Positions 1-64,000 are shown, numbered from the stretch's first letter. The stretch is DNA of 64,000 nt from Bilabrum cf. latius (GCA_965178125.1 OZ237739.1:248001-312000); one strand, 5' to 3'. Numbers and translations are program-made. Notes: generated by a model not told the origin, from the sequence alone.

Positions 1-3000
1 TTGATGACAATGTAAATGACTATCGCCCCGACAGCCATGCTACCCAGAGAGACACTCGCAAGCGTTGCAGTAGACCACATCGTGCTGTTGGAGTCTGTAC
101 TCTCCTATTCACCACCGGAGGGTCCGCCGCCGTTCGAGACAGTAGCACCCTGCCGAGATGGCTTCCTGCCGCCGTTCAACGCCCAAGCCGTTTCGCTTGC
201 GCGGCGGGTCCCGGGCTCAGGACCGGGCGATTTCACCGGGGGCGGTGGAAGGGCATCACCCTTTGGCAGCGACGAGTCGAAATCAATGGTGGGCTGGGGT
301 TCTCGCTCCCAGGCCGGAATCCCCTTGCCATCCTTGTCATCCTTGTCATGAAGGCTGCTCTGGTCTCGCTCCTCGACTGGATCTGCTGCAAGCACCTGCG
401 CTCCCGCCCCTCCATCGTGTGCCAGATTGCGCTGCCAGTCAAGCAAAGCGTACTGTGAAGTGCCCGTTGACACCACCACCAGCCCGATCCTGAACTGGCT
501 AGACCGCGGCCACGGGGTCGCGCCGCCCTACTCCGGCCTGGGTCCGCACACCTGCAGCATCCAGTCCATGGGCTCGTCGTGCGTGAGCCTGTAAGGGAAC
601 GCCAAGGACGCGTTGGCCGGCCTCGCTGTCACGCGATAGTCCATAGGAACCTCGATGCTCTCGGTGTTGATGCCGTCAGCGAACCACTGCGGCTCCTGGC
701 CCGCGGGCCGATCCGCCAGCAACACGGCGAGGGCCACGTGCTGGATCAGCAGGGGCATGCCCTCGCGCTTGTTGGTGATCGGGAAGAACGCCCGCCAGCA
801 TGCGTCGTCCTCGTCCTCTGCATCGACGCCGTCCACGTCCTCGCCGTCCTCTAGCGAAGCAGGCGAGTCGTCGCCGCCCGGAGACTTGCCAGCATGCTCC
901 TACGCTTGCAGGTTGACAATGGGCCATTCCTGCCTCAGGCTGGGCATCGTGTCTAGCTGCTGCACGTGCACGCTAAGCTTCTCGTTCCCCACAGCAACCT
1001 CTGGCATGACGGCCTGAAAGTGCATCGTGACGCTCTCAACCTCGCTCAGGATTGAAGAGCTCAGCAGTAGCTGCACCGCACTGTCTCCTGCCTTGGTGGG
1101 CTCAAAGGCGAACGGGCCAATTAGCTTTGTCTGGCTCTGGGCCAGCCTCTGGCGGGTAGATAGCACGACGGGGACCGTGCTGCCGTAGCGATTGCTCTGC
1201 GACTGCCGCCACCACTGCAGCTTGACGCTGTTGCGGCGCTCAGCCGGGATTGCCGAGGTCTCGTTCACGCCCGTCCCATCCGACAGGAAGCCCCGATCTG
1301 CCGTTCGGAACGCCTCTTCGCCCGCACCATGAGCGACTGCAGAGAAGCGGAGGCCTACAGAGATTCCTAGCCCAGCATCACTCAGCGCACTCACCCGAGA
1401 CCCGTTATTGCGCAAGGCCCAACCGGCCATGTATGCAGCGGGCACGCCGTGACCCCCGCAGCGCGATTCGAGCGTCTCGCACGACAGGGCAGTGGACGAC
1501 ATCATCGAGTAGCAGTTGGAGAGCACCTCGTCGTTGATGAACTGGGCCATCGCGTGGTTTGGCTCCCCCTCGCACTCGGGGCAGCGGTCTCCGGCGGCGC
1601 TCCGCAGGAAAGCCACGTCGATCCGTTCCTCTTCCTGCTTGCCGACCTGCTCGAAATGCTCCCACAAGGCGACCTCCCCAGGCACGTCTGCCATCCACTC
1701 CCCCAGGAAACCGAGACCTAGGACACCCTGCAGCTGGTACAGCCAGGACTCCCGGGCGCGCATGGAGGCCTCGAGCGCAAGCCGCTCGGCATTCGATCTG
1801 AGCACAGCGCAGATGTGCATCGCATCCGCGCACACGGAGGGCCCCGCCGCGGCATGGCTGCTCCTGTGTGTGTCCAGCTCGTGGGCAATGCAGGCCTTGG
1901 TGGCGGCATCGAAGCTGCGGACAAGCGCTCTTTGGTTGCGGTTGATCTGGACCTGGTCGTCGAGGTTAGAACGGTGCAGGTTCGCGCTCGTGATCCTGTT
2001 GGTGCCATCGCAGGTGGTGGCGTGCCCGACCTGCCTGGGAGAGATGGTGCCGTTGCCGTAGTAGGACGCCAGGCCCTCTAGCGAGACTCCCTCCGCCTGC
2101 AACTTGGATGCCTCCAGCTGGGGGTCCAGCGGCTGGGCACACAGTGCCCTGCACCTCATCCTCACCTCGGGCATGTACGCTGGGTCCCAGCACTGCTCGG
2201 TGACCACCGTGGCAGACGCTGCGGGAGCGTGGATGGTGTAGGCCGAGGAGCTGTCCCGCGATCGGATCGTGTTGGCAAAAGGGCCTGCGAGAGGAGTAGA
2301 CACGACGTTCTCGATTCCGAAGCGCATCTCTGGGCCCGTGACAAGGTCGTCGTCCGGAGATGCGAAGCTGCTGCGGAAGTATGCATCCGCGAGGGATGAT
2401 GGCAGGAACCTGCGCAATTCCGACTGCCCAACGGAATGCCCTCGGCTGGTCCACGCTGCCTGGCTCCCGATTCTGCCTGACACGGCCCTGTACTCTGGCC
2501 TGGGCCTGGCTCCCTGCAGTGTGACATCGACGATGATCTCGCGGCCGAACGGGTTGCGGACAGGCAGCATTGCCACCGCCCCCTCGCCCACGTAGGTTGG
2601 CGGCATCATCAAGTGCACGCCGCCCTGCTGCAGCTGCACCGAGGCAGGCAGCAGGAACTTCTGCACGTCAGCCAGCGAGCTGAACCTGAACCTGTCCGCC
2701 ACCACCGCGGCAGTCATGACGTCCGCGATCGCAAACCGCACGGCTTGCCTCGCCACGAAAGTCGCCAGATCGAAGCCCAGCTCGGCATCCGACCGCGCCG
2801 CAATCGCGCTCATCCTCGCCTGCACGTGCGCGTCGTTGTATGACGTGCTCGGTCCGCATTCGGAGGGCAGATCCGCAACGTTGGCTGAGAGGCCGGCCAG
2901 AGTGCGGTTCTCCATCATGAGCCCGCGGCCCATTTCGATCGGAATGAAACGCACGAACGAAGGCGCAAAGAATGGCTGCAGCACGTCAATGGGCTGCACG

Positions 3001-6000
3001 TCACCGCCAGCAAAGCCAGCGACAAGCGTGCTGCGGCTCCAGTCGCCAGTCGGAATCTCCTTCTACTAGGCTTCGTCTGCTGTGTCTGATCTGTCTGTCT
3101 CATTCGAGGTCGTGGGTCGCGAAAGCAGCACGGCTTGCGGGTGCACGTCGAGGGTCTCGCTGGGGTCGACGCACTCGCGCTCTGCGAGCCGCATCCCGCG
3201 CCCCAGCTGGCAGCGAGGCACCGTCTTGATGACACCAGATGGGATGCCGCTGGAAGGCCCCGGCAGCTGAGCGATCGAGAACCGGTGCTCCTCCTTGCCC
3301 TAGGCGTCCACAGTGGCCTCGGGCTCGACCCCTAGCACACCGATCGGTCTGCCGTCCCGAATCCTGGCCTAGATCTCCTTCCAGGACATCGGCCCGCCGT
3401 GGGGGTTCTCCACGCCGGAGTCAGGCCCCAGTGCATCCCACCGCAAGGCGCCGGAGGACTTTCCCCTGGGCGCAGCCACGAACATGGGAGCGTCAGGACT
3501 CGCAGCGATGGATCGGACGAAGGACAGCTTGGCGCCGCGCGCCAGGAACGGCGCGGGAGGCAGCACCACGGCCCTGCCTCTCTTCCGACTCGCGTCGCCC
3601 CACTGTGATCCAAGCAGAGCGACGAGCGAGTCATCGCAGCCCAGTCCCTCGGTGGGGCCGCTCCCTCGCGACGTGTCCTCTGTGCCCAGCATCGTCTCCA
3701 CCTGCAACTGCGCGCCGGCTCCCAGCGTCATCCGGGCCTGCACCACCAGCGAGCCGGCTGCACCTGCCAGGTTCTCGGCGATGGCGGTCGTCGCCGCCCC
3801 TGGTTCCATCTTGAGCTGGATTCCGACTGCCTGCGTCCCATAGTCCGAGAGCAGCAGCAGGGCGTCGGCCGCTCTGAGCCTAACTGAGGCACCCAGGGCC
3901 GGAGGGGCCGTGACTGCGACCGACAGCAAGACGGTGCCGCCAGGAGGCACCACCGCCTGCACCGGGGAGGTTGCCGGCGCCACAGTCCCAGTCCCCTGGA
4001 TGATCACGCGAGGCAGCCCGCCCACCCCGTGCGCATCCTCCCAGTCGGCTCCCTTGCGGCCCTTGCTTGCCCTGGCCTTGCGCCTGGAGCCCCTGCCCCT
4101 GCTGCGTGCCTGTGATGCGTCTTCGCCCTCATCGACGTCCAGCTGCTCCGCGCTTTCAGACGCGCAGAGGGCGCGGTGAGCCGCGGTCCTGCCGCCCAGA
4201 CCTACCTGGGTGGAGCGCCCCACTCTGAGGCGCTTGCCGCACATGAGCTCCAGGTGCACGCTGTCCACGGCGAGATAGGGCGGCTGGATGGAGCCATCCG
4301 GGTTCAGTGGCAGGTCCAGGCTGCCCATGGCCACCACGGTTGCCCTCGGTTGCCGCACCCGGACCATGCTCGCGTTGACCGACAGCAGGCCAGCGAGGTC
4401 TGCACGCACGGACACACCCAGCAGGCGGTGGGGTACCGGATCCGGGTTCCTGATCTGCAGCTCGACCACCCGAGTCGTCGCCTCGGAGAGCTTCCCAAAA
4501 TCTACCCAGGCCGGGGGGCGCTTTGGCAGCGGGAGATTTGCCACGTTCAGCAGCGGCCTCGGCTCCGTGGGCCGTCCAGTGGCTGGGTCTCGCCAGCTGG
4601 GGTCTGGCTTGCGGTACGGAGGCGGGACCTCCTCGGGGTCACCCGCGCTCTCCTGCGCGGCCGTCAGATTCCCACCGCCACCCTCTCCACCAATCCCGTC
4701 TATCTGCGCCTGAACTCCGAGGGGCAGCTCGATGCTGGCTGCCTCGAGCATCCTTGCGCCCAGCAGCTCGTCGTAGCTGGCGTAGCCCGGCTGGCCCAGA
4801 ACTTCCTGCAGCCACTCCTCACTGTCCCTGCCAGGGGCGTACGCCTACGCCACGTCGGTCTCATTGCCGGCCCAGAAGGGATCCAGCTCCGTGGTAAGGT
4901 TGGTGAGTCCGACGAGGGTATCGCAGTCCACGATGGGGGGCAGGCCCTGTTGCCTACGCAGGCGCCTGATCCTGCCCTTGAGGTGCGGCGGGATGACCTG
5001 CTTGCAGGAGTACCCCACATCATCCACGATGTCTAGGCTGCCACTGGCCAGCTCAGCCGCGGCGCTCGTTGCGTGAGCTCTCGTGGGAATCTTGACGGCC
5101 AGCCAGAAGAGGTGGCACCGGTTCCTGTTCTCTGCTCCCGTGCCCGCGGGCTGCCCATCGGGCCCGTGGGGACAGGCCGCCTGCTCGCTGGAGAGGTCGA
5201 ACCGGCCGCACGTGGGCAGTGCCTTGGGCGCCATCAGCTCGAAATCGTGGATCGGCTCCGAGTGAGCCGCAGCGTATACCCCCATGGCTTGCATGGTGGT
5301 GTGCCTGCTCATCGACAGCGTCGCATCGGCAGCCACAAACAGGCTGGGAGCGCCACCGAGGGCAGTCTACGCGGTCGTTTGGTCCGCGATGTCTTCCTTG
5401 GTTGTGTTGTTGAAGTGCAGCGGAGGGTGTGCCGACGCCACGAGGTGCATGTTGACGTTGACCGAGTCGTGCCCCCTGACGGCGGTGCGCATCGCGCTAG
5501 CCCAGTCGAAGTGGCAGCGGGGCACCACGTCCAGCCCTCCCTGCGCGGTCTGCACGGTGACGTGGAGTGACGTCACGTTCGTCATCAGCAGCAGCTCGGT
5601 GCGCTCCGGGGCGGCCTGCGAGGGGTCGCGCGCGATGGCGCTTAGCACCGCGGAGTCCACCGCCGCCATGGCGCTCCGGTACCCCTGGTCGTCGTCCTCC
5701 AGCAGCACGTGCCTCTCCTTTGCCGTACCCTCCTCCAGCGCGTCCGGAGTGGCCACCGCACGCGCGAGGCACAGGAGCCCGTGGACCGTGCGCAGGGCCT
5801 GGGCTCGCTGCCTGGCGTGGGCATTGGACGTATCGGTGCAGCCGGGCCCCGTGCACACCACGGCGCGAAGAAACGGATCCGCGATGCGCCGCGCATCTGC
5901 GGGATCCGCCAGGCTGAACAGGGCGCCGTTGGGCCAGCTTCCCGCAGGGATTCCGTCCGGCCTGCTCGGCGGCGCGAAGGCGTCCCTCGCGAGGTGGGCC

Positions 6001-9000
6001 CATCCCGGGTGTGCCGCGTCCTCCGAGGCAATGGGCATGCCCTCGTCGTCGAACGGGCCCCCGTCCTGCCGCCTCCTCGCGGTGGCCACCGCGTCCCAGG
6101 GGCACCGGAGCTCGTCCAAGCTGCCCGGCGTGATCATGCGCGTGAGGTTTCCGATGAGCCATCGCACGGACCGCTCCCGCGGCCCCCTCCACTTCCTTGC
6201 GCCAGGCAGGTCCTTGTGCTGCACGGCCGACGCGTTGTACCTCCCCTCCTCCTCAACGGCCGGCGGGCGCCCCAGCACCTGCTCGATCCCGTGATCGGGA
6301 TCGATGGTCGCGGTCACACCAGCTGGAGGTGCCTCCGGGCTGCACACGCCCGAGCTCGACAGCATCTTGCCGACCACCACGCTGGTGGCGAGCTTCCTGG
6401 TCGTCCTGTCCATGGCTCCGGCGGTGCGGTTGCCCTCCGCAATCTCCTCCAGCTTCTTGTACTCTGGCGACTTGGACGTGATGGGGACGCCCTTGCGCGT
6501 GCGGACCTTGCTGCGCTTCGAGGCCACGAGGGCGGCCGCAGAGCCGGCTAGCACGGCGTCCAGCTCTGCCGACGGCACGGACGTCTGAAGCCGGAGCGCC
6601 GCCTCGCAGATGTCGTACCGGAACAGCCCGTCGTGCAGCCCCTAGGTGCTCCTCGGCGGCCTGGGGACCAGCAGATCCGACAGGCCCGCCCGCATCAGCC
6701 GCCTCGCTACCTCGGCCTCGAGACGTGTGCCGTACCGCTAGGAGTGCCCCTGCGGCTGCAGCGACTGCAGAGCCCCAGAGTCCATGTCCACGCCGATGGG
6801 GAAGGGCCCGTCGATGGGGTCACCGGGGCTGGCGATGCCGGCGCTGAACTCCAGGTTGTCCGAGTCGAGCGACTTGGTCCCCGCGGGAGTCCCGCCGCCG
6901 GCGCTGGCGGAGGAGGAGGAGGGCACACCATCGAAGGGGCCTATGGCCGACCCTGGCGGGATCCCAGTGGACCCGTGGAGGTAGATCTCCGCCTCTGCTG
7001 CGTCTAGCACGGCCTTTCGCAACTCCTCGGGGGCGCTTCCCTCCGCCGTGGCGGTCAGCAGGGACCTGAGGTACTCGGGCTGGAGGGCCGCCGCCCTCAC
7101 CTGGATGGGGGTCCCCCCGCTCCCAGTGACAATGGTCCGCATGCCGGCCTCGGGCCCGTAGGTCAGAGGCGTCCAGTCCGCTGTCTTAGAGCCCAGCTGC
7201 GAATTGCCGATCGCCTAGCCCTAGACCTCCGAAGGGTCCACAGTCGTCGAGAAGTCACCCCGAGGCCCATCCCAGGGGTCCGTATCGCTGTCCACCAGCT
7301 TCTCCCACACGCGCTGGTCGCCGCCCTGCCGCATAGCCTCCTCCTGCGGGGTGGCCTCCGATCCCAGGTACCCGTCACCCGAGTCCTGCAGCGCCAGCAG
7401 TGCATGCCTGCCCGCTCGCTTTTCCTATGGACCCTGTCCGAACCCGGCGGGCAGCAGTCCCGCCGAGAGCGCGATGCTCTCCGCCGTTGTCAGCAGACGG
7501 TCCAGCGCGTAGTTGAGCAGCTGCACGGAGGCCCGTGCCGAGGCATTGGACGCAGACAGGCCCTCGTGCTCCAGCAGCTGGCCCTCCACCGTGGCCTGCC
7601 CGGTGGTGGATGACTTGAACCCCCTGGCCTTGCGCTGCCGCTCCTGCTCGTTGGACCTGCGAGAGCCTCGGGTGGCACGGCGCAGCGCGGGGGCGCGGAA
7701 CACCGCGGCCGCCCGTTGCACCACCCCGAGGATCTTTGCGCTCGCAGCCAGAGCGTGGGCTCCGTGCCGCACCCTCCCCCCTGCCACCGCCGGCTGCACG
7801 GGACCCTGGTCCACCAGGGGGCAGTAGAACAACCCCGCGCCCTTCGTCCCGTGGACCCACAGGGGCGCTGGTCCGCTTTGGGAGGAAGCCCCCGCCACTG
7901 CGCCTGCCTTGCCCAGGCACGCCCGTCTGGGGTTGTACTCGGGAGAGATCGGCTGGTGCACGGGCTGCGCGCCGGGCTTGGCTAGCACGGCCAGGTGAAT
8001 CGGATCCCAAGCGTCCCCGGGGTGAGCGACCGACTGCTCGGGGGCTCGCTGCACGACCACGCGGGGGTCCAGAGCAAATGCGCCGTACAGCTGCACGGGG
8101 ACGGGGAGGAGGTTTCGCAGTAGGATGGGCCGCGCCACGCCCGTGGCCCACGCCGAGGACTGCCAGCCCCCGGCGTCAGCCCAGCTCCTGTACTCTTCGA
8201 TCCCGATGGGGTTCGGCCTTCTGCCCGGATTCTTTTTCATCTGCAGGGCCTGTCGCACGTGAAGAGGGTGCGCGCTCTCAGGCGCAGGACCCTTGCCGCC
8301 AAATGCCATGCTTGCCATCGCGAGGTCCACTCCGTGGGAGCCGAGCGCGGGGTGGGACACACCAACCGCCAGCGCACGTTTGGCGCCCGACTCGCTGCCA
8401 CCCTGCACGGAGCTCGCCCACGACGGCATCTTGCTAGCAGACGACCAGTGGGACACCGTCTCGGCCACCGAAGGCGTCCCGCTTCCCTTGGACGGCCACG
8501 CGCGCACGAGGCTCCCGATCTGCGTGGATCGGGTCACCCCGCCCAAGCCACCGAACCCCTCTACGTCCGCGCACTGCCTCCACATGGCAGCCTCCACTGC
8601 GCTCAGTGAGTTCCTGGACTCCTTGCCCAGCTCGGTGGCAGCGAACCAGTCCGGCCTGCCGTGCGCCTGAGCCGCCATCACGAGGGCTCGGCGACGGAGG
8701 CTCGTGGCCCGCATGTGTAGAGAACGGGACGGCAGCGCCACTCCGTGCCTGACGAGCGCCCCGAGGGCGTGCTACTGCCGCTCCAGCGCGCACCGGCTGA
8801 TGCCGAACCACTAGATGCCAACCCCCGCTCGCAACGTGTGCGCGAGAAACCTGGCCTGCACAAAATCTGAGTCGCTGCCGCCGACCATGGCCGTCGCTCT
8901 TTCAAGCGCTACGTTCATTTGGGCGGGAGGCAGCTCGTCCGCCTTTGCGCTCGATACCGCTTCGTGCACCGGGGAGCAGGCATCCAGGCTCTGGACGAGC

Positions 9001-11897
9001 TCCTCGTGGCTGGCTGTGCACTCCATGGCGGTGCCCGACCCCGTGCCCGTGGAGCTGCTCTTCTTGTTCTTCTTATTCTTTGCTCCTTTCGACTGCTGAT
9101 AGTCATCCGGTCTCATCGCGACCTAGCCCGCCTGGTCGGCACCTGAAGGCAGCACGAAGACAAGGTCTGCCGTTCGAACTGCAACCGCTCCGCGCAGGAC
9201 CTTGCCGGTGAGCCGCACCTGAGCTTTTTCCCTGGAGGCCTGTGTGTGGTTCGATGTCACGTGCACGCGCGCCCGGAACTCCACCGCGAGCGCCAGCCTC
9301 TCCGTGGCCTCGTGGGCGTCTCCGTGGCGCAGGTGCTGCGTGCCCACCCCGATGACGGGGCTGAGTCCTCCCGCGGCGTTCCAGCTCCAGCCCGAAGTGC
9401 CACTTTCCTCGGATTTGCCGTCGCCGCGCTCCTCCGTGGCAGCCACTGGCACGGCGGGCTTCTTCCTAAAGTCGGAGGGACGCATCAGGAACCGCACCGA
9501 GGGCGAGCCGTCCGACGCGCCCCCGTCGCGCGGCAGGGCACCGAAGCCGTCCTGCAGCTGCGCCCTGGCGTGCAGCAGCGCCATTGCCTCCGCATGCACG
9601 GCAGAGTGCACCAGCTGAGAGGCCAGCACGGTCGCCACGCCGTCGCCGTCGGCCCACGAGGAGGGCGCGATGGTCTTGGGGGGCAGGGCCCCACCCACGA
9701 TGAGGTGGCTCGGAGTCGAGTCCAGTCCCGTGAGCCGCACGGGCGATGCGCCCCTGTTGGCGATTGCCATCCTCGCGCTCAGCACGTCGATCACCGGCTG
9801 CGCCGACCCGTCCAGGATCCCCCTCGGCGATGTGAATTTCCAAGGGAGGGAGACGCGGTTCCCCTGCAGCGCCATGGCCACCGTCTCGCCGTGAGACTCG
9901 CCCGGGGGTGTGCTGCCGGCGAGGCCGTCGCCATCCGGGTCGGTGGCGCGTACGTACTCGTCATCAAGGCTTGCCACTCTGGCCACCCCGAGAGAGGCCC
10001 CCGGAACGACCGCCTCCCTCCCGCCCAGATCCCAAGGGTCCATCGAGGCTGCTTCCTCCGTGGTGAGCTCTGACTCGACCGCCCACTCAGGCCGGGGCTT
10101 GATGTGACCAGAGCCGCTCGGCAAGGACGCGGGCGCAGGCGCTGGCTGGGGCGCCGCGAGCATGCTGTCTTCGTCCATCGGCAATGGAGTGTTCCAGTCG
10201 TCAGCCAAGACCGACCAGGCGGCTGCCTCGCTGGAGGGCTGAGCGCTGCCGCGTCGACTGGCAGCCCTCTTCTTTCCCTTGCCCTTCTTCTTTCCCTTGC
10301 CCTTCTTCTTTCCCTTGCCCTTCTTCTTTCCCTTGCCTCCTTTCGCGAGTGTTCCGCTGGGTTTTCCCTCCGGCTGCACTGGTGCCGCGCCCTGCCTACC
10401 ACTCACCATGTCAGCGTACCTGGCGCGGCGGGGCCACATGGCTCGGTGCATCGAATCAGTGAGATTGCCAGGGGGGCCGTGCGGTCCAGGTCGCATGTAC
10501 TACAGCAGGCTGCATGTTGCCGGCGTTGGTGGCATCACAGACGCGGCGCCCACACGCACCAGGCCTTTGATCCCAGCCAGCGGGTCCTGGGCCGCGTGCT
10601 CGGACGGCCCCGCGCCGCCCCCCCTCTCCACCGGCTCGCCATCGATTCCTACCTCTCGAGAGGAAGGAATCGGCACGGTCTTGTCGCTGCCCTCCTCATA
10701 CCATCCTACTTTAGACACTCCGCAAAGCTGGGGCAGGTACATGGCCCGCGCTGCCTCGAACATCGACCGGTCGTCGATGATGTAGCCCAGGTCCCACGAC
10801 TGCGGAGTCACGTCCAGCCCTCCTCGGGCCACCCGCAGCTGCACAGGGACCACCATGTCGTCCTTGCTCGTAGCCACGTGGACAAACCCGGAGTACATGC
10901 CCGGCGTGCTGCTTCGAAAGTGCAGCCGGGCCACCTTTGCGCTGCTGTGAGGCCCAATGATCCATCGCATGCCGTCTGCAGCGGCAGCCGCGCTGTCCAA
11001 CGCCAGCTCCGGGTCGGCTCCTGCGTGCTGCCCACCGGCGACTTTAACGTTTCCGCCCTATTGACTGCTGGTTGGCACTTTAGGTGCCCGTATGGCGAGG
11101 AAAGGCTCCGTGCTGAATATCTCCTTCACCCTCAGAGGCGTCTTGTGGGGGTTGTACAGGGTGAGCGCGGGGGAGAAGAGGGACCCAGCTGGCAGGGTGA
11201 CCCCGCTCAGTGCCTTAAGACGGTACTAGGAGTGTGTCCCGCTCCCGCCCACGCGCACAGTCACCACGCCCTGGCTGGTCTCCACGTACACGGTGTCATT
11301 GATCGGACCAGTCGCGTGCGGTACCACGATCACGTTCACGAGACCGGGCTCTGCCAGCGTGGCCTGGTCTCTCTATATGGATGGGAACACGGATGGCGTG
11401 CTGGCCCAGGTGCTGATGAGCTTGACGGGGGCAGGTGGTCCGTCCGTTTGACCGACACTGGGCCCGTCGGATCCTCCTCGCGCTGCCCGGGTCGCAGCCT
11501 AGCCGGAGCTCGCCGTGGGCGGTGAGACGGCGATTTCAACCGATTTGACGCTCGCAATGCACAGCTACCTGCGCCCAAACCCAAGCAAGCGCGGCTGGGC
11601 CTTGATCCACGACGGGGCCCGCTGCAGCGTCGCCGCGACGGCCGCGGATGGACGGCCCTTGAGAGGACCGAACTCCTCTTCCTGAATGCGAAGACTTCCG
11701 GCCGAGTCCTTGGCGCTCCAACCTGGCGCATCTACTGCTGTGGTTGTATCTACCAGCGGTGGTGGCCGCGGCTCTGGCCTGCCGGTGCTTGCTAGGCTGC
11801 CGGGTTGGCTCTGTCTGCCGTGCATCTGCGACCTCCCTCTTTGCAACGCCGCAGCAAATGAAGTGATCAAAGCCAGCATGCCCAGTATACGGGCCAT
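1..11897 (-). CDS. Very large TMEM131-like membrane protein, ~3960+ aa with TAG=Gln, running off the left edge of the window
   Basis: Twelve track ORFs (105-479 through 11565-11897) lie in one minus frame, and every junction I checked is a TAG. N-terminal signal peptide (MARILGMLALITSFAAA). TMEM131-like segments YRLKALSG..LYNPHKTPLRVKEIFS and WIIGPHSSAKVARLHF..GFVHVATSKDDMVVPVQLRV. A hydrophobic helix lies near positions 1-60. Not every gap was checked. Confidence 0.7.
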
Positions 11898-12412
11898 ATC
11901 TGGACCCCTAGGGGAGATCCTGCGGCCGGAGAAAAAGCATGCAGAAGGCGAACAATAAGGCTAGAACGGTGCCAACGACAAAGTCATAGGCAAAGCTTTG
12001 GCCCTAAAGGAGATGCTTAATGTGAATAATACTCCTTTTAGGGATACAGAGTAGTTAAGTATCACTCGCGTTCGAATCCGCATCACTATGAGCAGTGACA
12101 AACTCAAACCGCCGAGATAGCTCCTTTGCAGATCCCCACATGGAGCGGTACAACGAGGATATCGACCCAAATAGAACAATAAATCAGATACGGGGCAAAT
12201 GCAAAGCATCGGAACTCACCAGGGCTTGAAAATGCGCGGTACAGTCATGTACAACTGGAGGTATCCGCACGCTACAAACGCCGCGAAAGCAACCGACAAC
12301 AAATCAGCACATAGTTGTGGTGTTGAAAAGGTCCGCGGGTTCTGCTCCAAGCTGGTCGGTAGGAAGCCTATATCAGCTCGATTTGGGGCTGTTTGGCGAC
12401 CTTACCAAAGCA

Positions 12413-49290: not shown

Positions 49291-49318
49291 GTTAAATGAA
49301 CGGAGCAGGAACTTTCTT

Positions 49319-49494
49319 CAAAAATTACCCAATCTCCGCCCCTCTCCTGAACACAGAGAGGGTATGCGCGTCATCGCAAGCAATCCGTTGGCTTGGTCGC
49401 ACCTTCCCGGTCGCAACCGCCATCGGAACGCAACGAGACGTTCACGCGCTCCCACTCTGGCATCAACACCGAACCCCATCCGGCGTTAGGATCA
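49319..49494 (-). repeat. Ngaro 5' A1 repeat
   Basis: Identical to 42991-43166. Confidence 0.95.
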
Positions 49495-51824: not shown

Positions 51825-52127
51825 ACCACGCGCTGCGCACGTGCGCTCCGCGACCGCCCCTCGCCCCGCTTGAAACCCCTAGGAAAGAAATAATATCCAT
51901 TTAGGAATTGCGGAATCCACAGCAACTCGCAGGAGAATCTGTTCGCGCCCAGCAACACTCTCTCCCGATCCATCTCTGCACGTACAGAATAACCCAGTCA
52001 GAAATTTCGACTCTTGTACAATTCATGGAAAGTAATTACTTTTAACAAAAGTAAAATCCCCTATACTCTACTCTCGCAGTCCATATGAAACCCGTAGTAT
52101 ACTACGGGTTTCATATGGACTGCGAGA
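51825..52127 (-). repeat. Right terminal inverted repeat, ending in the same perfect 56-bp palindrome (52072-52127)
   Basis: Reverse complement of 18313-18615. Confidence 0.95.
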
Positions 52128-53496: not shown

Positions 53497-53848
53497 GGCT
53501 TGGGAGCTTGTTGGACCTTTGAGATGTAGTTTGAGTGTGTGTTGCTGCACTCAGCACCCAGCTACCCACTAGACTAGCCACTGGCAAATGCTATACCGGA
53601 AGTGGAATTCCGGATCCGGATTGCCATATCCGTGGCCGAACCCGTGGCACCAAACAATCACACAACCACCTGCCATTCAGTCAACAAAGAGGGTCCGATC
53701 GCCATGGGAGAAGCCGCAGCAGTAAGTCTATAAACTTAATTGTAGCGATATCGTGCTACAAGTGATTGAATTTGTCGATTTCTAGAATTTCGACGGGATT
53801 GTCCGGGTGACCGAAAAAGTATGTCCACCTTGCTGTCCACGTGACCTT

Positions 53849-56284
53849 ATGCTAACGCAGGCAGCTTTAACTTCTGTACGGCTGGGTACTGTGCCTCTGT
53901 ATGGAATCAACCTGGAGTCACGCAAGTTTGAGGCCACGCAGCCCGAGAGGCTCCGAGCTACTTTACGATTGGGTAGCACGCGAGCCTTGTCCGTGATCAC
54001 CATCGTGGTGCATGGCGATGCTAGGACCGGAAAGAGCATGATGCTGAACCACGTCGTGAAATCCATTCTGCTTCGGGCTTTCGGGAGCTTGGACGCTGTT
54101 CGGCTGCAGCAGCTGCATCCAGACGTGCCCCCTGTCCGCATCGGCGAGTGCCCGGCGTCCGGCGAGCAAGTGCCGCTTGCGTTCGAAGTCGGGCACGGCG
54201 CCAGACCATGCACGAAAGGTGGCAAAGGATGCTTCATTCACCTCCCGCGAGGCGCGCTCGGTCGATCAGAGGAATGCGTTGTCGCCGTCATCGACTCTGA
54301 GGGCACCGGGGACTAGGACGAGGCGCACGACGCGAAGGTCATCCTGCCTGGGCTGGCCCTGTGCAGCCGCGGCGTGTTCATGGCCAACATGAAGAACCCG
54401 CCCATGAAGAGCAAAGTCCTCGATACCATCAAGCAGATCCTGGATGCCGCACTTATCGTGGGCAGGGGCCGCAGGATGGACCAGCAAGCAGCTGGTGCTG
54501 CCGGAACTGCGGCACAAGGGGGGGCCGCAGCGGGTGACCGTGCCGCAGCCAGCAACGATCGGTCCACCTTTGTGCTTGTGGCTCGTGATATGTCGCTAGA
54601 GCCCACACAGACGATCGAGGAGGCGGAAGAGGCCCTCATGAGGCCAGAGCACGAGGACCTCTTCGGGGGTCACGAAGCCGATGCAGCCAAGCAGAGGAAC
54701 CGAGCCAGGTCCATGATCCGTGAGACGTTCGCGCAGTGCAAGCAGGCGCGTATTCCTCCTCCAAGCGTGGCTGGTCTGCGTCCCGGCCAGGAGTACCCCA
54801 AGGACTTCTCTGCCGCCCTCGATGCCATCGGTGCCATGGTGGGTCGCAACGTGATCCCGGTTCTGCAGGACGAGACACCAAGGTGCCTGCTGGGCAATCC
54901 TGACATGCCTTGCGATACGCAGCACTACGGCGCAGTGATGGCTGCAGTGGTACAGCAGGCCAACGATGCCACGGACGCACTCCGCCCCATGGGCATCCTC
55001 GAGACCATGAAGGCACAGGCAGGGGCAGCGGCGGCCAAGCAGCTGTGCGAGGCTGTCGAGCGAGCGCTCGTGGCACTCAACGGACCTGTCCGCATGGACT
55101 GCACGGCATCGCCGGGGACAGCAACCCACGCCATGGCTGCTCTGCAGGACCGTGCAGTGCAGGTGGCTCTCGAGACCATGCGGGCGTCCTATCGATTGGC
55201 CTCGGAGGAGGACGCGCGAGCTCTGGTGACTGCAGATGGTGGTGATGTGGCCGAGTCAATCCACAACTTGAAAGAGGCGATGCTCAGCAAAGCCCGGGAC
55301 AGGCAGACACTGTTGCTGCAGTCTGTGTGCACGATTCTGCGTGGGGAGGCAGACAACGCAAGGCATCACCAGCTAATGCAGCTGGAGCTCAAGCTGCAGG
55401 AGACCATGAGCAACACCGACGGAGAAGATGCGAGCGATCCTGATGCCGTGATTACGTCTCGAAAGATGCGGGTGGTCCATCTGGAGGAGCTGCAAGAAGA
55501 GCTACGCGGTGTCACGATTGCGAGGGAGGTGGCAAGGGGGACGCATGCCGTGTGCGTGCAGCTGCTGGCAGATGCCGAGGGCCAGCTCCGTGGAGTTGCA
55601 GGCGATAATGGTCATGCAGCTGCTTGCAGTAATACCTTCACAATGGTACGGCACCAGGCCTGCTAGTAGCTGTGCAGCGTGGCACTGGATGGGGCTGCGG
55701 TCCACGAGGCTGATGCTGGCGCAGGGGCAGACGCAGCAGCTGGCGGTGCTGCAGCCGGTGGCGCTGCTGAGGCCGCTGCGGGTGGCTTTGCCAGTGCTGT
55801 GCCGAGCCTGTAGCCCATGGTTCAGATGCTGCTGGCCATGGACTGTCTCTCCGTTGACGGGGATGGAACAGTGCAGGCCGATCCCGCCGACGTGTCCGGC
55901 ATCCTGACCAAGGTGGTGGACGAGAACGAGGGCATCGACGCAGTCTGCGAGCACGCAGAGTCTGACATGGATCGATTCATGAGGCAGCTGAGCACGCAGG
56001 TCACCGCGGCGAAGCGCAGCGTAGCGGATGCCGAGCACTTCAAGGACAACAGAGAGAGGCTTGAGCAGAGCATCCGTCAGCAGCAGGAGGATGCAGCACA
56101 GTTTCAGCGGGAGCACGAAAGGCGCATGCAGGAGTCCAAAGAGGCTTACGACAAGATGCAGGCCGAAATGGCGAAACAGGACAGGGAGTTCCAGCAGTAC
56201 CGGCAACGCATGCATGCGGAAATTGCGGCACTTCGAGCAGCAGCCAACAAGAAGAAGAAGAAGCCTTGGTGGCGACGCTGGTGA
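53849..56284 (+). CDS. GBP/atlastin-like large GTPase with a coiled-coil C-terminus and basic/aromatic tail (KKKKKPWWRRW)
   Basis: G1 GDARTGKS, PCTKG, G3 IDSEGTGD and LVARD; three track ORFs join via TAG. Confidence 0.82.
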
Positions 56285-56492
56285 CTAGTGCTTACTCCTC
56301 TACAGTCAATACCTTCGCATGGAGAGGGAGATCAGCCGGCTCCGGGCCGAGGCGGCAAGCAGGAGAGGTGGCAGAAGGTGCATCATCTCTTAAGCATACA
56401 AGAAAAGCGTCTAAAAGTAATAGATCCACCGTTAAGTGCATGCAAGGTCTGAACAGCCGATCCTACGTCGAACACGGTCCGCTGAATTCATC

Positions 56493-59400
56493 TCAATCAG
56501 CCTCTTCACCCTCTCCCTCATCCTCCTCCTTGACAGCATACAGGTCAATCTCGCCCGATTCTCCCGCTTCCAGCGTGTCAAACCCCACGGACGTCGTCCC
56601 AAAGCCCCGCAGCGCCCCACCGCGCACCCGCACGTCCGTCGACTCCACCGCGCTGTCCTGCGACCCGGACAGCCTGCTGTCGATCGTGGTGGACGGTCTC
56701 GTCAGCGCGTTCCGCTGCCTCTCTAGCCGCTCAGCCAGGCTGCGCACGGGAGCCGCACCTCCCTACCCTGGGGACCCGAGGCCAGCCAGGCCCTACGCCC
56801 CATCAGCGTCCTGCATCACCGCATCTGCGATCCTGTCTCCCTCTCCGTCGCTATCCTCGTCGTCCCCTGACGACGACATGCTAGACCCGCTGTTCGAGGC
56901 ATCCCCAGACCTCCTCCTGTTCCGCTTGCTGCCCCCGCTGCCGCGCCCTGCTAGCCCCCCGTGCTTGATGGCGTGGTCGTCCTGCACCATGAACCCATCG
57001 TCCTGCAGGCCTTCCACCGTCAGGTTGTGCACGTCTCTCGGGCTCTAAGCAGACAGGTTGCTGCTCTGCCTCATACCCGACGGCGTTTCGTTGCTACCCC
57101 CGAGCCCGAGGTCTTCGAGACCCACGCCGTCCTGGCTCTGGCTCTCGCCTGTGCCACCGCTGCTCGGTTCTGGCACGGGCTCGATCTCCTCCTCGTCCTC
57201 GCTGGGGACGTAGTCCGACAGCCTCATCTAATCGAAGTACCCCACGTCCATGTCGTCCTCTATGTCGGGCACGAAGGGACCATCCTCCGCGAAGAGAGTC
57301 TCCCAGTTGACGCCGTTCTTCCGGAAGAATGGATGCGACATGATGTCGTGGTAGCCTCTCTCCACCCCGCCGTGACCCAGCCTCTTCCTGCGATTCACCT
57401 GCAGCAGCTTCTGTATCAGGTCGACTGCCTCGGGCGAGCACCCGTGCCTCCTCGGCCACAGGATTCGGCCCCTGGCGATGTTCTAGAAGGTGAGCATCTT
57501 TGACTAGGGGTTTTTGAACGGCTGGTACCCAAACAGGAGCTCGAAGACGATCACCCCGAGGCTCCAAAGGTCGACCTCGTACGAATGCGCCATCCGCCTC
57601 GACAGCACTTCGGGGGCGATGTAGTTGGTGGTACCGATGGGGCTGTATCTCAGCTGCCTCGCCCCGAGCCCGTGCCCCGCAGGCCGGGCAGAGGCAGGTC
57701 CCATCGTGGGCGCCTCCTCGTACGCAGTGGCCTCGTCCTCGCGCCGCAGGGCCCTCCAACCGGCGGACTATCCTTCTATCCCAAGCCTCGCCCTCGCCCT
57801 GGCGGCTCTGTCAACACTGGAGGCGGCTGTTCCCCCTTGCGTGTCCACGGGCTCTGCATGGTCGCCGGGGGACGGGGCGGAGCTCTGCGTGTTGGCCTAG
57901 CTGTCTGGGGGAGTCTCCTCGGTGGGAGTGCGAGCCGCATGCGAATCCTTGCTCGTGTTGGAACCCTCGGGGGTCCGCTCGCTCCGACTGGTAACGGTGC
58001 GCGCTGCAGAGGGCTCGCCTAGGCGGTCGCCCTCCGCATCGTTACCGCCAGCACCGGCGCCTGTGTCCAAGTCGGAATCCTTGGCCACCTGCTTCACGTA
58101 GTCGTCCAGGGCTGATTGCGCCAGCTCCACCAGCCCAGCATCTCCGCCGCGTGCAGGCAGAGAGTGCGCCCTCCGGCGCCCGCCAGACGCAGCTCCGAAG
58201 CCTCCGCCCTAGCCGATTGCAGCAAACCCAGCCCCGGGACCCGCAGCCTCAACCGCCTTGCCTGACTCAGCCCCGCCGGCAGGGTCCTTACCCTGCTCCC
58301 CGTCCCGCCCTAGCGACGTAAACTTCCTAGGCATTGAGGCCCGCAGGGCGTCAACGGTGCTTGCTCTAGGCAGCACCTTCGGCCGCCTGCTCCCCGCCAC
58401 TGCCTGCCAACGCTGCACGCTGGACATGGACATATTTCTAACGCCATCATCAATCCCAGAACTGCTCCTGCTGCGGCTGCGGGAGCCTTCTGAAGTGCCC
58501 AGGGGCGCAGAGGCTCTAGCAGCACCAGCCCGCCCCATGCGACTCGATGGTAGAGCCTAAGCCCCGGTGGGAGCTGGGGCGGCAGCTGTCGCCTGGAGGG
58601 CCGCACCCGGCCTCCGAGCATGCGCGGGAGACAAGCTGGGCAGTGCTGCGCCGTCGTCCCGACCAGCAACCTGTGCCTGACCGCTAGTGCCCGCATCGTG
58701 CACAAACACAGCATCGTCTGCCGGACTCTCCTCGATGCTCGAAAACACCTCCCGCACCTCTGGGGTCGGGTCGGCGTGCCTGCTCAGAGTACCCAGCTGG
58801 CCCGGCTGCTTGAATGCGAGGCGCCTCCCGTCCCCCCTGGGGCCCTTCTGCAGGCCGGGGCCCATCGGTCCAAGGAGCCCGCCCTCTGGCATGCCTATGT
58901 CAACCTCCGATTCGTTGCTGGAGCTGCCCACTGAGCCCCCGCTGCCGTCCCTGTCGTGGATCTGCACGCTCGGTTTGACACCCATCAGATTCCTGATCGC
59001 AAGCACGCGGTTCGGCCTTGGAGATGTCGTCTGGCCGCGCGAGGAGGCCTAGCTGTCGCCCCCGGGCTGCACCCTTGCAATCAGGCCGCGCGAGCCGAGG
59101 CTGATGGACGGGAGCGCACCGGTTGCAAGCAGCCCGCGGGATGGCGAGTCGCCATCGCCAGCCTCGGCCAGGAGCCCGCCGCCCGTGCGAGTGAGGAGGA
59201 GGCCGCTTCCGGACCCAGCTCTCACCCTCGGCGCGCTCGTGGCTCGCTCCAGGCCACTGCGACTGGCCCCGGCCAGCACCCCAAGGTCACCCCCGCTCTC
59301 CTCCCTGTCGCGCCCGGATGTGGCCCTTGGTCTGGCAGCACTTGCAGCAGCGCCAGCGCCAGCGCGGCCCTCGCGAGGACTGGCTTCTTTCTTCCTGCTC

Positions 59401-61659
59401 TTGGATCGCGGTGGAGACCTCGCGCGAGCCAGCTTGCTCTTTGTCATGGGCGGAGGCTCGTCATCGCTGTGCTCGGGCGGGGAAGCGGCAGCGGCGTCAG
59501 GGACCGCGTTGGGTCGTCCAGCAGCACGAGCGGCTGCGACACCCCCTGCATCGGCCTCAGAGCCGCTGGATCCGCCCAGCTCATGCTCCAGCTCGCGCGC
59601 TTCTATCTTGCCCTTGTTGATGCGCGCCCATCGCATACTTGCGGGGGCATCTGCGCCGGGCAGGGGCCGGACATCAGGCGGGTGGTGGTGCACCCTGTCC
59701 CCCGCCGACTCTAGGAAATCGGCGGCCAGGCCAAAGTCGGCTATCTTGAGGTGTCCCCTGGGTCCAATCAGGAGGTTCTCCGGTTTCAGGTCACGGTGCA
59801 CGATGCCCATCCGGTGAAGGTGCCTGAGCCCCAGCACGATCTGCGCCACGAAGCTCGCTGCCTTGGGCTCCTCCATGGCCCCCACCCCATCCAGCAAAGA
59901 GAACAGGTCGCCTCCGGGCACGAACTCCATGACCATCACGATGGTATTGGAGGACCGGAAGAAGCGGTGCTGCCTCACCACGAAAGGGTTGCCATCGGCA
60001 GCGGCCATGGTGAGCAGCCGCTGCTCGGTTAGCACTCGTTGCAGCATCTTTTGCTTCTGCACCTCCCTGATAGCCATCACTTTCAATGCCATCACCTGCC
60101 CGTCCGATCTGCTCCTGGCCAGGACCAGCTTGCCCAGTCCGCCCCTGGAGAATGGCTTCAGCACCTGCACTCCCTGCAGCAGACGGCCCATGCGCCGCCC
60201 CGTCCGTCGCCTCCTCGGCCTCTTGGCAGTAGCCTAGTCAGCGCCTGCTGCAGTGCCCTTGGCCTTGCCCTTGCCCCCCGCTTTCCTCTCGTCCCTCTTC
60301 TCTCTCTTTTCACGCCTCTTCTCGCGACTCAGCTTGCTCTTGCCCTTACCTTTGCCCTTGCCCTTGTTCTGGTCGGTTGTCTTGGATTTGGAGCGGCCGT
60401 TCCGGCGGCTGTCCGACGTGCCGCCCTCTTCTGAATCCCGGGCAAAATGCCGGAGCTCCTGCCTACACAGCCGGACCAGCCGATCAGCCAGCCGCAGCAG
60501 GACGGCAAGGACTTCGCACGGCTCGCTCGCTCCTCCTCCTCCACCTCCTCTTCCTGCTTGCCGTCCTGCGCCAGAGGTCGCAGCTCCCCCGCCCGGGGGC
60601 ACCTCTCCCTGGTTCCCGCCCATCTTGCTCCCCGTGCTGCTGGTACCCACTATTTCATCGTGCCTGGAGTCTGTTGTTTTGGGGCGGCTGCCTGTGCCGC
60701 TGCCGCTGCTCGCTTCGTCCTACTCCAGGTTCTTGAGCGCATCTGCGGCCAGAAGCAGGTGCTTCCGCTGGGCGAGCAGCCAATTTCGGATGCGTCTTGC
60801 ATTTTGAAGCAATCCACGGACTCTCCATTCCAGCTGTAGCGCTGACGGGGCCGTGTCGGCTAAGGGAACGGTTTGCAGCCCTGCGAGGCTCATCAGGCTC
60901 GAGCCGGCGGAATCGACACCGAGGGCCCCAGCCTCCATGCGCTGGAAACCGCGCGATTTTACCTAAGTTCCAGGCACAAGGGACATTGTTTCGGCCTGTC
61001 CTGCGGCCGCGAAGCTGCTGGACGCCTCTGTGTAGTTTCGGCGTTTCGTCGGCAGCACGCGAATGAGCGCACCATTCCGGCCCAGGATTCCTTCCAGCCA
61101 AGGCGACTTGACCTGAATTTGGAGCTAGCAGCATTGAGCTAACACAAGACTGCGATATAATTGGGAAATTGAGTCGGGGGTCGCGGGTAACGCGGAGAGG
61201 GTCCGTGGAGCGCACGTGTGCTGCATAGTCTCACCCCATGCACCCTGCCGCTATTCGCCGACCAGTTGCTGCTGCCGTAAAATAATCAAAACCTAGGACA
61301 GCCTCTGAAAGGGCAGATGGTCCGACCCCTTTGTCGGCTAGACGACCAAGCTGAGAGAGCAGCCGGAGCGGCCCGTCGAGGCGACCCTTTCCTTCTGCGG
61401 ATATTCTCTGTAGTACCGTTGATTCTGGGCCTCCGACACAAAGAATACTGCTAACTCCTGGTGTCAAGCGCGCAAATCGAAACAGATACATCAGCGGCGT
61501 CTGAATGGGAGGCATGGTCCTCAAATCCACGACCGGTCGGCCGACGACTGCTCCGTCCTGAGGCTGCGAATTTCCCCTTGAAGCTGAACCATTGGGCCGG
61601 CAATGATCTTCGTACTTTGATTCGCCAGGTTGCTGCACGGTGCTGGCGCCGCAACCCAT
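56493..61659 (-). CDS. Greatwall/MASTL/Rim15-type AGC kinase with a long insert between subdomains VII and VIII; myristoylation-like MGCGAS start; probable intron near 61155-61240
   Basis: [34 protein letters not shown] and DFGL, then about 700 codons of insert before [20 protein letters not shown] and PFVP...YFD. Confidence 0.8.
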
Positions 61660-61823
61660 ACTGTTCGGGGCTGCAACTCAACAGACAGATGGGCCAGTCC
61701 ATCGGTGCTGGAGCCCCAGCCACGGATAGCGAACCTTGGAAAGAAGTTCGTTCTGGTTCGTTGGATGGATTCGGATTTGCAAACACCGATGAAGAAATGA
61801 AGGGCACAACCTTGCGCCTTGCA

Positions 61824-62486
61824 ATGAATGATGCTATCGCTGGGTCAACCGACTCAAGCAAGATTGCTCTTCCTCTTCTGACGCTCGCTGGATTTGTTGG
61901 TGGCCTTTGGGCTGGATGGGCGGTGGCAAGGCGAGCGGGGACAAGCAGCAGCAGGCGAATGCCAGAAGGCAATGATGTTGAGTAGAAGTTGTGCCCGATC
62001 GATGATGTTGATAGTGCTGAAGAATCATCTGATGAAGAAGAGGGCGAAGACAGCCAGAAGTCTGGCGAGAAGGGGGCACCGAGGGGCAGACGGGATCGGC
62101 TCAGGAAAGGAGAGCTGAAGATGGTCCTGTTGGTTCGTCAAGACCTGAAAATGTCCCCAGGAAAGGTTGCGGCGCAGTGTAGTCACGCGAGCCTGGGTGC
62201 CTACCGGCATGCGATGCGAAGCCCGAGGACGGCAAGGCACGTGGAGGCATGGATCCGCCGCGGGCAGGCCAAGATTGTCTTGAAGGTGAAGAACAAGAAG
62301 AAGATGGACGCCGTCAAGAAGGAACTGGACGAGGCGGGCCACCCGACGTATGTGGTGGAGGACGCGGGCAGGACCGAGGTGGAGCCTGGGAGCGAGACGG
62401 TGATGGCGGTGGGGCCAGCCTTCGTTGACGAGCTCGACAAGATCACGGGCAGGGACGGGAGCCACAAGCTGTCCCTGTTCCGATGA
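61824..62486 (+). CDS. PTH2: Peptidyl-tRNA hydrolase 2 with an N-terminal membrane anchor (start approximate)
   Basis: KMVLLVRQDLKMSPGKVAAQCSHA, GQAKIVLK, DAGRTEV.PGS.TV.AVGP; the TM segment joins via TAG at 61983. Confidence 0.9.
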
Positions 62487-62658
62487 TAAAACAGTCGCTG
62501 AGATTTTGACTTTTAGCGACGTGTATGGGAAATGCCAGATGCCAGGGCGGCAGATGCCAGGGCGGCAGAAGTAGGTGGGGCCGGGGGCCGCGGGCCGGTC
62601 ACTGGGCCAAGCACTGAGCATGCACACGTTTTAAATCTATGCGTCTTCGTGCAAGTCC

Positions 62659-63878
62659 TTATCCTACGGCCTACTAGGCACACACACCCACAGGCACCGC
62701 CGACACACTCACCCCCACCCCCACCATGCACGCACACGCCAGCACGAGCAGCAGGAGTACCCCGACCCCAAGGAGGCATACCACTGGCACCTCCACAACT
62801 GCCTATTCCTCATTTCCTTTCCTGCCGAAGCACGAGGCTGACCAAAACCAAGACGGGGGCGGGCGAGCAACGAGCACTTGCTCCGGCTGCAACGGCTCCG
62901 TGACCGGCAGACCCACGCTGGACTTGGTGCCAAAGGCCGGCCTGCCCCCACCTGCTTGCAGCCTGAGGGGGCGTTCCCTGCGGCGCTGCAGCTCGTGAAA
63001 TAAATCCCTGCACATGGGCAGCGATAGCTTGGGCCCTGCCGTGCGGAAGAAATCGGACAGGTCCGCGGGCCCCGGGGTCATCGTCGACTCGGATCTGTTC
63101 GTTCCATCCCCCGATGTAGGCTGCCTCCGGGACCGGCTCCGGCTTCGATTGCTTGTTTTCTAGCCACCAGATGGGGATGGCTGCTATGAGTCGGTCGATC
63201 GGCCTCTCTTCAAGTTGGGCCCTCTGCCGCCGCCCCTACTAGTACTCTCCTGCGAGTGCTCGGCCGCTGGCGGCAACCGAACGAGCGCATGGCCTGGCAC
63301 CGGAGCCATGCCGCAGTCTTGCTCGTACTCTAATGCCTACACGCACATTTCAAGCTTGTCTATCTGTTTTACTAGGGTTGCCTCCGGCGTCGCGCCGGCA
63401 TCGTACTGCGAGGGTTGCGGTGTGACGCCCCGGGCCACGATGGCACAATGCAGAGTATACCTCCAAAGATATCCGGTACAATGCTTCGGCTTGTACTCAC
63501 CTCTTCCCATAGCTCGATAAGCTCTGCAGCGAAATCAGATCCTGATGCGCCCTTAACGGACTTTGCAATCCTCTCTACAGCACTCAGCTCAATCTTGTGT
63601 TTGTCGCTGCCCTTGATGTTGTCAGATGGGGTTATGTCGCCACAGATCGCTTCGGCTATATCATGAACTAGAGCCATCTTCACGCACCGCTCAACATGCA
63701 CAGCTGGATCCAACTGGGGAGCAATAAATGCTATCATTACTGCCATGCGCCAAGAATGGTCCGCAACGGATTCAATCCGGGCTGGGACACGCCTATCTAC
63801 CCATCCTTGCCGCAACACAGTCTTTAAACCCCCAAGGAGCTGGATAAAATCAACGGCACATTCGATTTTGGCTTGCAT
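62659..63878 (-). CDS. HDDC2: HD-domain 5'-deoxynucleotidase (HDDC2-like); intron at 63406-63500; 3' end uncertain
   Basis: LK...RQGW, ESVADHSWRM, ALVHDIAEAICGDITP, ELWEE|YDAG.TPEA..VKQIDKLEMCVQALEYE and LSDFF. Confidence 0.85.
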
Positions 63879-64000
63879 CGCACGATTGATATGATTTGGG
63901 GAAATGGTAAACTTGGGTTCCGGTTTGACTCACCCACTGGCGTGCACATCACTGAAGCCTGTGCCTCTTTCGGGCCGGCGGAGCCTCCTCCTCCGCGGCA

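Follow-up and report, generated by a model that had tools for sequence, protein, structure and literature searches.

The question raised by this locus is what the codon UAG means in the organism from which it comes. The DNA concerned is a stretch of 64,000 nucleotides from Bilabrum cf. latius (GCA_965178125.1 OZ237739.1:248001-312000), referred to here as the window, in which cellular genes flank what appears to be an integrated virophage that is itself interrupted by a retrotransposon. The flanking DNA is eukaryotic: it bears introns and encodes ordinary cellular domains. Genes of all three kinds contain in-frame TAG, and an earlier, sequence-only reading proposed that UAG has been reassigned to glutamine in host, virophage and retrotransposon alike, with UAA and UGA kept as stops. 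The structure of the open reading frames (ORFs), the frame counts, the gene ends, a log-odds analysis of homologous columns and the assembled contigs all agree with that proposal. We therefore consider it probable, at roughly 0.88, that this GC-rich, intron-bearing eukaryote reads UAG as Gln and terminates at UAA and UGA (NCBI table 15), and that its virophage and retrotransposon do the same.

That UAG is a sense codon is apparent from the length of the ORFs. The longest ORF under table 11 encodes 699 aa, a value that does not change when TAA is read as sense and rises to 1016 aa when TGA is; with TAG as sense, ORFs of 4069, 1919, 1648, 849 and 843 aa are recovered. The first of these, a TMEM131-like host ORF on the minus strand (3-12209) that runs for 4069 codons, is still open at its 3′ end and encodes an Ig_TMEM131_2 domain (residues 329-445), contains 24 in-frame TAG and neither TAA nor TGA, whereas the other five frames, counted over 4068 codons, hold 11-32 TAG, 3-9 TAA and 20-80 TGA. 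The same exclusivity is seen in the main retrotransposon ORF (11 TAG), a kinase ORF (15 TAG) and the 843-codon ORF (5 TAG), each with no TAA and no TGA in its coding frame. Pooled over 6829 codons, with terminal stops taken off, the coding frames of 21 virophage ORFs contain 80 TAG, no TAA and no TGA; the other frames contain 102-255 TAA and 106-264 TGA. Within coding frames, TAG is as frequent as it is off-frame, and the pattern as a whole is far beyond chance. Counts at the level of the ORF are upper bounds, as the 5′ parts of some ORFs are intron or untranslated region; examples are residues 1-105 of the kinase ORF (intron 61150-61234) and residue 11 of the ORF at 53753-56284 (intron 53722-53860).

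It could be argued that such triplets are damage or artefact, reflecting decaying pseudogenes, assembly errors or codons that are corrected in the mRNA. This would not be unprecedented, given that endogenous viral elements often show premature stops arising from assembly errors (PMC10120064, PMC8547959). But interruptions in this window are exclusively TAG, as the virophage counts make plain; ORFs of up to 4069 codons run without a frameshift; host housekeeping genes likewise carry TAG; the sequence recurs in independent runs with 0 differences; and spliced contigs, discussed below, retain the codon. An origin in damage or artefact is accordingly so improbable that it can be given almost no weight.

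The ends of genes point to UAA and UGA as the remaining stops. The sequence-only reading had stated that the genes it traced end in TAA or TGA, and this is borne out by the virophage ORFs, 12 of which end in TAA and 9 in TGA, and by the host ORFs, where TGA is the stop in 8 of 9. The virophage ORFs follow one another along the element at distances of tens of bases; every one of the 21 contains TAG, and so do both retrotransposon ORFs. TAG is spread evenly along the virophage ORFs (19, 18, 12, 13 and 18 by successive fifths; 6 are within the final 20 codons, where 4.9 would be expected), and there is thus no sign that it ends genes. Codon usage separates the two UAR codons as well: the virophage uses CAA 244 times, CAG 57 times, in-frame TAG 80 times and in-frame TAA not once. 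Were TAA also a Gln codon, a CAA-preferring virophage would favor TAA over TAG, so this code differs from those in which UAA and UAG are both Gln. Moreover, read-through is needed for function, because TAGs precede the C-lobe of the kinase, the conserved C-terminal block of the host HDDC2 protein and a conserved, chromodomain-like C-terminal block of the virophage integrase, which lies beyond the last TAG of that gene. The consequence of applying the standard code can be seen in a public protein of 84 aa (P0094, on a 27-kb contig), which is identical to integrase residues 56-139 and ends at the first internal TAG.

The identity of the inserted residue can be approached through conserved positions in homologous proteins, and here homology searches were made with TAG translated as X and hence blind to the residue. 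The rve-type integrase of the virophage (31210-32415, plus strand; 7 TAG; PF00665, E 2.8e-16) has 223 homologues at E <= 1e-30 in a representative library; its alignment comprised 145 of the best 150 representatives, from which its own fragment P0094 was removed, as were four proteins of more than 700 aa. At residue 172 (TAG 31723-31725), within a P-x-T-N-G motif, 103 of the 145 homologues have Gln, as do the Ty3 and foamy-virus (PFV) integrases. The small C5 DNA methyltransferase (DNMT) of the virophage (41629-42375, minus strand; 3 TAG) was aligned with the best 120 of its 261 homologues, and Gln occupies residue 123 (TAG 42007-42009) in 81 of the 111 of these that align there. Its third TAG, at residue 214, is matched by Gln in P0163, the closest full-length relative among the matches listed (75% identity), whose conserved tail continues past this position. 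In three further relatives (67-79% identity) the called protein ends exactly before the residue-214 column; these genes appear to carry TAG there and to have been called under the standard code. Host genes add to this. Residue 1319 of the kinase (TAG 57483-57485) aligns with a Gln of human Greatwall and a Glu of PKA, and among 12 homologues Gln is the commonest residue both there (7 of 21 aligned segments) and at residue 1312 (5 of 21). The HDDC2 TAG at 63337-63339 lies opposite a Gln of human HDDC2 in a weak local match made with exon 2 alone (E 0.31). Each of the TAGs that the sequence-only reading had placed at conserved Gln positions is indeed in frame: integrase residues 140 (TAG 31627-31629) and 172 within the ORF at 31210-32415 on the plus strand, the HDDC2 codon on the minus strand, kinase residue 1319 and small DNMT residue 123. 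Not all of them face a predominantly Gln column, as the case of residue 140 below illustrates.

A Codetta-like log-odds calculation over those TAG columns of the integrase and the small DNMT with a depth of 20 or more aligned residues (9 columns; 1 of 10 was dropped for depth) gives Gln +4.57 nats. The next residues are Ala (-4.75) and Arg (-4.77), and every residue other than Gln is negative. As a control, sets of 9 columns were drawn for 31 sense codons, and 3054 of the 3100 draws recovered the true residue; with all columns 46 of 48 codons were assigned correctly. The share of Gln among homologue residues is 16.9% at TAG columns and 21.7% at the query's own Gln codons, compared with 4.8% overall. 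The four most conserved TAG columns are all Gln.

Several observations weigh against this assignment, and some of them invite the alternative that UAG encodes another amino acid, for example Leu, Glu, Lys or Tyr. TAG codons sit mostly at variable columns, and a number of these are led by other residues: in the integrase, Leu predominates at residue 8 (78 of 119 homologues; the alignment of the best match begins only at residue 11), Arg at residue 140 (88 of 145, compared with 30 that have Gln) and Lys at residues 266 and 291; in the small DNMT, Glu leads at residue 96, where it is found in 44 of the best 120 of 261 homologues. In the larger, HhaI-like C5 DNMT of the virophage (32442-33512, plus strand), all 4 TAG are at variable columns, with residue 186 opposite Lys and residue 278 opposite Thr or Met. 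In the major capsid protein, residue 404 is opposite Asp in both solved virophage capsids and residue 390 opposite Ala or Val, and kinase residue 1404 is opposite Ala or Asp. The two GIY-YIG endonuclease paralogues of the virophage had been put forward as an internal comparison in which TAG aligns with CAA or CAG; both of the cited pairings are real, but they were selected, as only 3 of 7 alignable TAG face Gln and the others face Arg, Glu, Gly or Asp. It should also be noted that the calibrated log-odds draws on two virophage genes, with support for Gln from host genes amounting to about three columns, and that no host gene in the window firmly ends in TAA. UAG is known to encode Leu in a rhizarian and in some ciliates (PMC5304391, PMC11687900), so a different residue would have precedent. 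The log-odds nevertheless separates Gln from the best non-Gln residue by sign, with 99% of control draws right, and the best-conserved columns are all Gln; another amino acid is therefore very unlikely.

Further evidence that UAG is read through comes from assembled contigs of four runs (X2, X6, X7 and X8). Three introns of GT..AG type are exactly missing from contigs of X6, X7 and X8: one of 139 nt at 53722-53860 on the plus strand (absent from contigs of X6 and X8), one of 85 nt at 61150-61234 on the minus strand (absent from contigs of X6, X7 and X8), and one of 95 nt at 63406-63500 on the minus strand, within HDDC2. The RNA nature of X6-X8 is a software guess, none of the listed datasets being recorded as RNA, and we infer an origin in cDNA from this exact loss of introns. 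A contig of X2, by comparison, spans 56200-64000 unspliced with both minus-strand introns retained, and no X2 piece bridges 53722-53860. One X6 contig (record 12) joins 56467-61149 to 61235-61680 with 0 differences from the genomic sequence and runs 26 nt beyond the TGA of the kinase; another (record 14) contains both HDDC2 exons, also with 0 differences. Because spliced contigs match the genomic sequence without a difference, TAG is neither spliced out nor edited, an outcome that goes against one of the refuting conditions named by the sequence-only reading.

The HDDC2 gene supplies, all the same, a further point on the opposing side. The 3′ end of this gene has two candidates, an in-frame TAG at 62803-62805 and a TAA at 62659-62661. 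The X6 record 14 contig stops at 62805, the first T of that TAG, and the stretch of 48 codons that leads on to the TAA is rich in GT and has a non-coding look. That the contig ends at the TAG could be chance, termination at this codon or a UAA made by polyadenylation, each of which is possible. In Blastocystis, some stops are reported to be completed as UAA by polyadenylation after U. A context-dependent UAG, which would encode Gln within genes and terminate near some 3′ ends (or give rise to UAA in the manner of Blastocystis), would account for this contig, and ambiguous stop/sense codes are known from ciliates, in the manner of Condylostoma and the karyorelicts, and from Blastocrithidia. But HDDC2 is the sole instance, and the end of an RNA cannot be read from the end of a contig; for the kinase, the contig continues 26 nt beyond the TGA, for two further genes it continues 133 nt beyond, and the virophage ORFs show no excess of TAG near their ends. 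Context dependence is thus an unlikely reading, although it is the one among the alternatives to which we would give the most weight.

If UAG is uniformly Gln, as we favor, the codon would be decoded by a tRNA-Gln with anticodon CUA, which would pair with UAG and not with UAA (cf. PMC5304391) and which could arise most simply from tRNA-Gln(CUG). A release factor eRF1 that had given up recognition of UAG while keeping UAA and UGA would complete the mechanism. Neither a tRNA-Gln(CUA) nor an eRF1 gene is found within the 64-kb window, an absence that belongs with the points against, and the mechanism is proposed by inference. The only tRNA in the window is of the CAU type and is not a UAG reader; relaxed ARAGORN settings yielded otherwise only implausible calls with huge introns.

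The distribution of TAG also bears on how long the virophage has lived with this code. TAG accounts for 80 of its 381 presumed Gln codons, more than CAG, which argues for long residence. Partial support is added by the presence of TAG in all 21 ORFs together with the three diverged small DNMT relatives that apparently share one. Long co-adaptation of the virophage with the code, as the sequence-only reading had proposed, is on these grounds plausible. The virophage would be correctly expressed only in cells with this code, and its helper giant virus would in turn have to tolerate UAG as Gln. It is also plausible that the code acts as a host-range barrier.

The element itself spans 18313-52127, with about 25.5 kb of its own sequence at 37% GC, and is visible in the GC profile as a block of 33-45% GC (~18.3 to 42.8 kb) between flanks of 60-70%, with a second low-GC patch at 50-52 kb. 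It is bounded by terminal inverted repeats (TIRs) at 18313-18615 and 51825-52127 (303 nt, 95% complementary), and a 5-bp direct repeat, TGGGT, is present at both edges, next to host DNA of 65-67% GC. From its double jelly-roll capsid, rve integrase, TIRs and target duplication, the element is, as far as sequence can tell, a mavirus-like virophage. The major capsid protein gene (20422-22143, plus strand; 5 TAG) matches PF22031, MCP_V20_C (E 7.8e-11), and among PDB entries 6g45 (E 1.9e-10) and Sputnik V20, 3j26 (E 5e-6). A primase-helicase of the DUF5906 type lies at 38072-40621. A Walker A motif is present in the ORF at 28143-29225, the putative packaging ATPase, whose AAA matches are all weak (E 0.009-0.25), while the ORFs at 18940-19461 and 19485-20396, in the places expected for protease and penton, have no significant family match. 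Of the GIY-YIG paralogues, one (27537-28109, minus strand) contains 4 TAG, and the other has its 5′ part at 42422-42834 on the plus strand, where the retrotransposon splits it, the frame picking up after 49494.

Within the virophage, a tRNA gene with a CAU anticodon (Met type) is located at 34086-34156 on the plus strand (Rfam tRNA, 63.7 bits). This is not without parallel, as the tRNAs of one clade of metagenomic virophages are mostly tRNA-Met(CAT) (PMC6905037). A T-arm-like fragment follows it at ~34190-34225 and is called as a tRNA by no tool. Other repeated sequences are also found here. A 271-nt inverted repeat (37796-38066 and 40703-40973, 94% complementary) encloses the primase-helicase gene, and AT-rich intergenic repeats of 59-74 nt, each with a small palindrome, occur in 4-5 copies between short genes at 33519-37505; these may be virophage promoter or terminator elements. 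The right TIR contains a 1.7-kb insert (50136-51824, minus strand) with a 410-aa ORF (50130-51362, 3 TAG) that has no significant family match. A contig of run X2 links 50135 directly to 51825, so the insert is polymorphic between copies or strains. Runs X6-X8 give no cover at 50004-51337, which says nothing on expression.

Profile scans with the integrase recovered 43 loci in IMG/VR and 80 in metagenomes, the latter mostly short contigs with a match to the integrase core only. The phage collection contains no relative of the integrase. When 22 virophage proteins were compared by tblastn with the 43 IMG/VR loci, few matches besides the integrase were obtained, and these fall mostly at variable columns. 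Single-protein scans of IMG/VR gave no relatives of the capsid, the ATPase, the primase-helicase or a 2-oxoglutarate (2OG)-oxygenase/methyltransferase; a word-based homologue search with the ATPase gave nothing at E <= 1e-5; and PDB searches with the small DNMT, the oxygenase/methyltransferase and the retrotransposon polyprotein were without a match. For the large DNMT, the nearest relative recovered is on a contig of a giant-virus metagenome-assembled genome (MAG) (L124, 1001-1996; 51% identity over 330 residues). None of the three ORFs in that 3-kb piece contains TAG in frame, a sample too small for inferring the code in use.

The retrotransposon that interrupts the virophage (42835-49494, minus strand; 6.66 kb, 61% GC) is probably of the tyrosine-recombinase, Ngaro/DIRS-like type, as it combines split repeats with a putative reverse transcriptase (RT)-RNase H ORF and an overlapping putative tyrosine-recombinase ORF. 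The split direct repeats, in the order A1 ... B1 A2 B2, pair 49319-49494 with 42991-43166 (176 nt) and 43167-43296 with 42835-42964 (130 nt), with 100% identity in each pair. The RT-RNase H ORF (43531-49290, minus strand; 11 TAG) matches RVT_3 at E 1.5e-4, and its RT motifs were recognised by eye only. The recombinase ORF (43337-44395, minus strand; 4 TAG), which overlaps it, scores 23.3 bits against PF00589, Phage_integrase (E 6.1e-5), under the curated cut-off of 27.1. Variation between runs in the retrotransposon amounts to 286 differences; among those listed, 30 are inside its ORF and none of these touches a TAG codon. Summed contig depth over 44001-49494 is very high in the transcript-like runs, in X6 for instance ~2100-3600 compared with ~50-70 over host genes, a quantity that does not measure expression, and several different loose ends lie at 49494, which fits many copies of the retrotransposon at different sites.

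The host genes of the window include the Greatwall-like AGC kinase (56493-61149, minus strand), which terminates at a TGA (56493-56495). Its kinase domain is interrupted by an insert of ~690 residues, the N-lobe extending to residue 573 and the C-lobe starting at residue 1266; five TAG lie between the lobes, and three, including that at 57483-57485, in the C-lobe and AGC tail. In each of the four runs, many contigs are joined or end loosely at a low-complexity, Lys/Gly-rich coding repeat in this gene (60254-60366), which is likely to be shared with other loci. The HDDC2 gene (62659-63878, minus strand) has its first exon, a clear HD_3 domain (E 2.3e-30), at 63501-63878, and its second from 63405 downwards. 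After the TAG at 63337-63339, two more (63184-63186 and 63160-63162) stand ahead of its conserved C-terminal block. Other host ORFs encode fucosyltransferase, TLC, RNA ligase and PTH2 domains; a protein atlas yielded nothing beyond generic clusters of RNA ligases.

For a long time, nuclear codes were believed not to reassign UAG by itself, and the change is known from few lineages (PMC5304391, PMC11687900), in agreement with the rarity asserted by the sequence-only reading. UAG as Gln with UAA and UGA as stops has been described in the fornicate Iotanema spirale (PMC5304391) and in two ciliates, Hartmannula sinica and Trochilia petrani (PMC11687900); the eRF1 of Iotanema is reported to have a T32G substitution in its GTS motif, which has been proposed to account for the sparing of UAG (PMC5304391). 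The code of the present organism is therefore already known, if rare. The case resembles Iotanema and the two ciliates both in the code and in the kind of evidence, namely in-frame UAG at conserved Gln positions, but differs in that the genome is GC-rich (60-70%) and that a virophage and a retrotransposon in it use the same code. Ciliate genomes, by contrast, are generally AT-rich. An independent, GC-rich case offers a test bed for how eRF1 and tRNA-Gln(CUA) separate UAG from UAA.

The implications extend to giant viruses. To date, all giant-virus isolates come from standard-code hosts, yet some giant-virus MAGs annotate better under alternative codes (PMC13524828). The organism described here is like those MAGs in having a single reassigned stop codon, although it is a cellular genome with a virophage. 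Virophages are parasites of giant viruses, and the 80 in-frame UAG of this one therefore point to the replication of a giant virus in a cell where UAG is Gln. A bolder and rather doubtful extension starts from the virophage being apparently intact and written wholly in this code: this would be an unreported lineage in which host, giant virus and virophage all operate under a UAG-only Gln code, it or its relatives would be the kind of cellular host that is missing for giant viruses in which TAG is Gln (PMC13524828), and the code would confine such viruses to such hosts. The locus provides a concrete organism in which to seek such a giant virus, and in which to test whether a change of code limits the host range of viruses and mobile elements. 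Standard-code annotation of this genome would be badly fragmented, because standard gene callers cut at TAG, as P0094 illustrates.

Among known systems, the closest in architecture are the endogenous mavirus-like elements (EMALEs) and Ngaro retrotransposons of Cafeteria burkhardae. There, too, AT-rich virophages with TIRs, an rve integrase and a mavirus-type capsid reside in a host of ~70% GC, and GC-rich retrotransposons with terminal A/B repeats interrupt them (PMC8547959, PMC10945749). The Cafeteria nuclear genome, unlike the present one, was annotated with the standard code, at 82-84% of BUSCOs (PMC6972860), whereas the element described here needs UAG to be Gln. Our literature search, with supplements outside its scope, found no virophage, Cafeteria-like organism or heterotrophic flagellate in which UAG is Gln, and within that search this is the first recoded virophage. 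The polinton-like viruses of Streblomastix strix are the one precedent found for integrated viral elements in a host's variant code: genes of an integrated DNA virus are written in that code, which the authors take as a sign of long association (PMC10120064). In Streblomastix, TAA and TAG are both Gln and the viruses are polinton-like; here, by contrast, UAG alone has been reassigned, and the integrated element, being a virophage, implies that a giant virus serves as helper.

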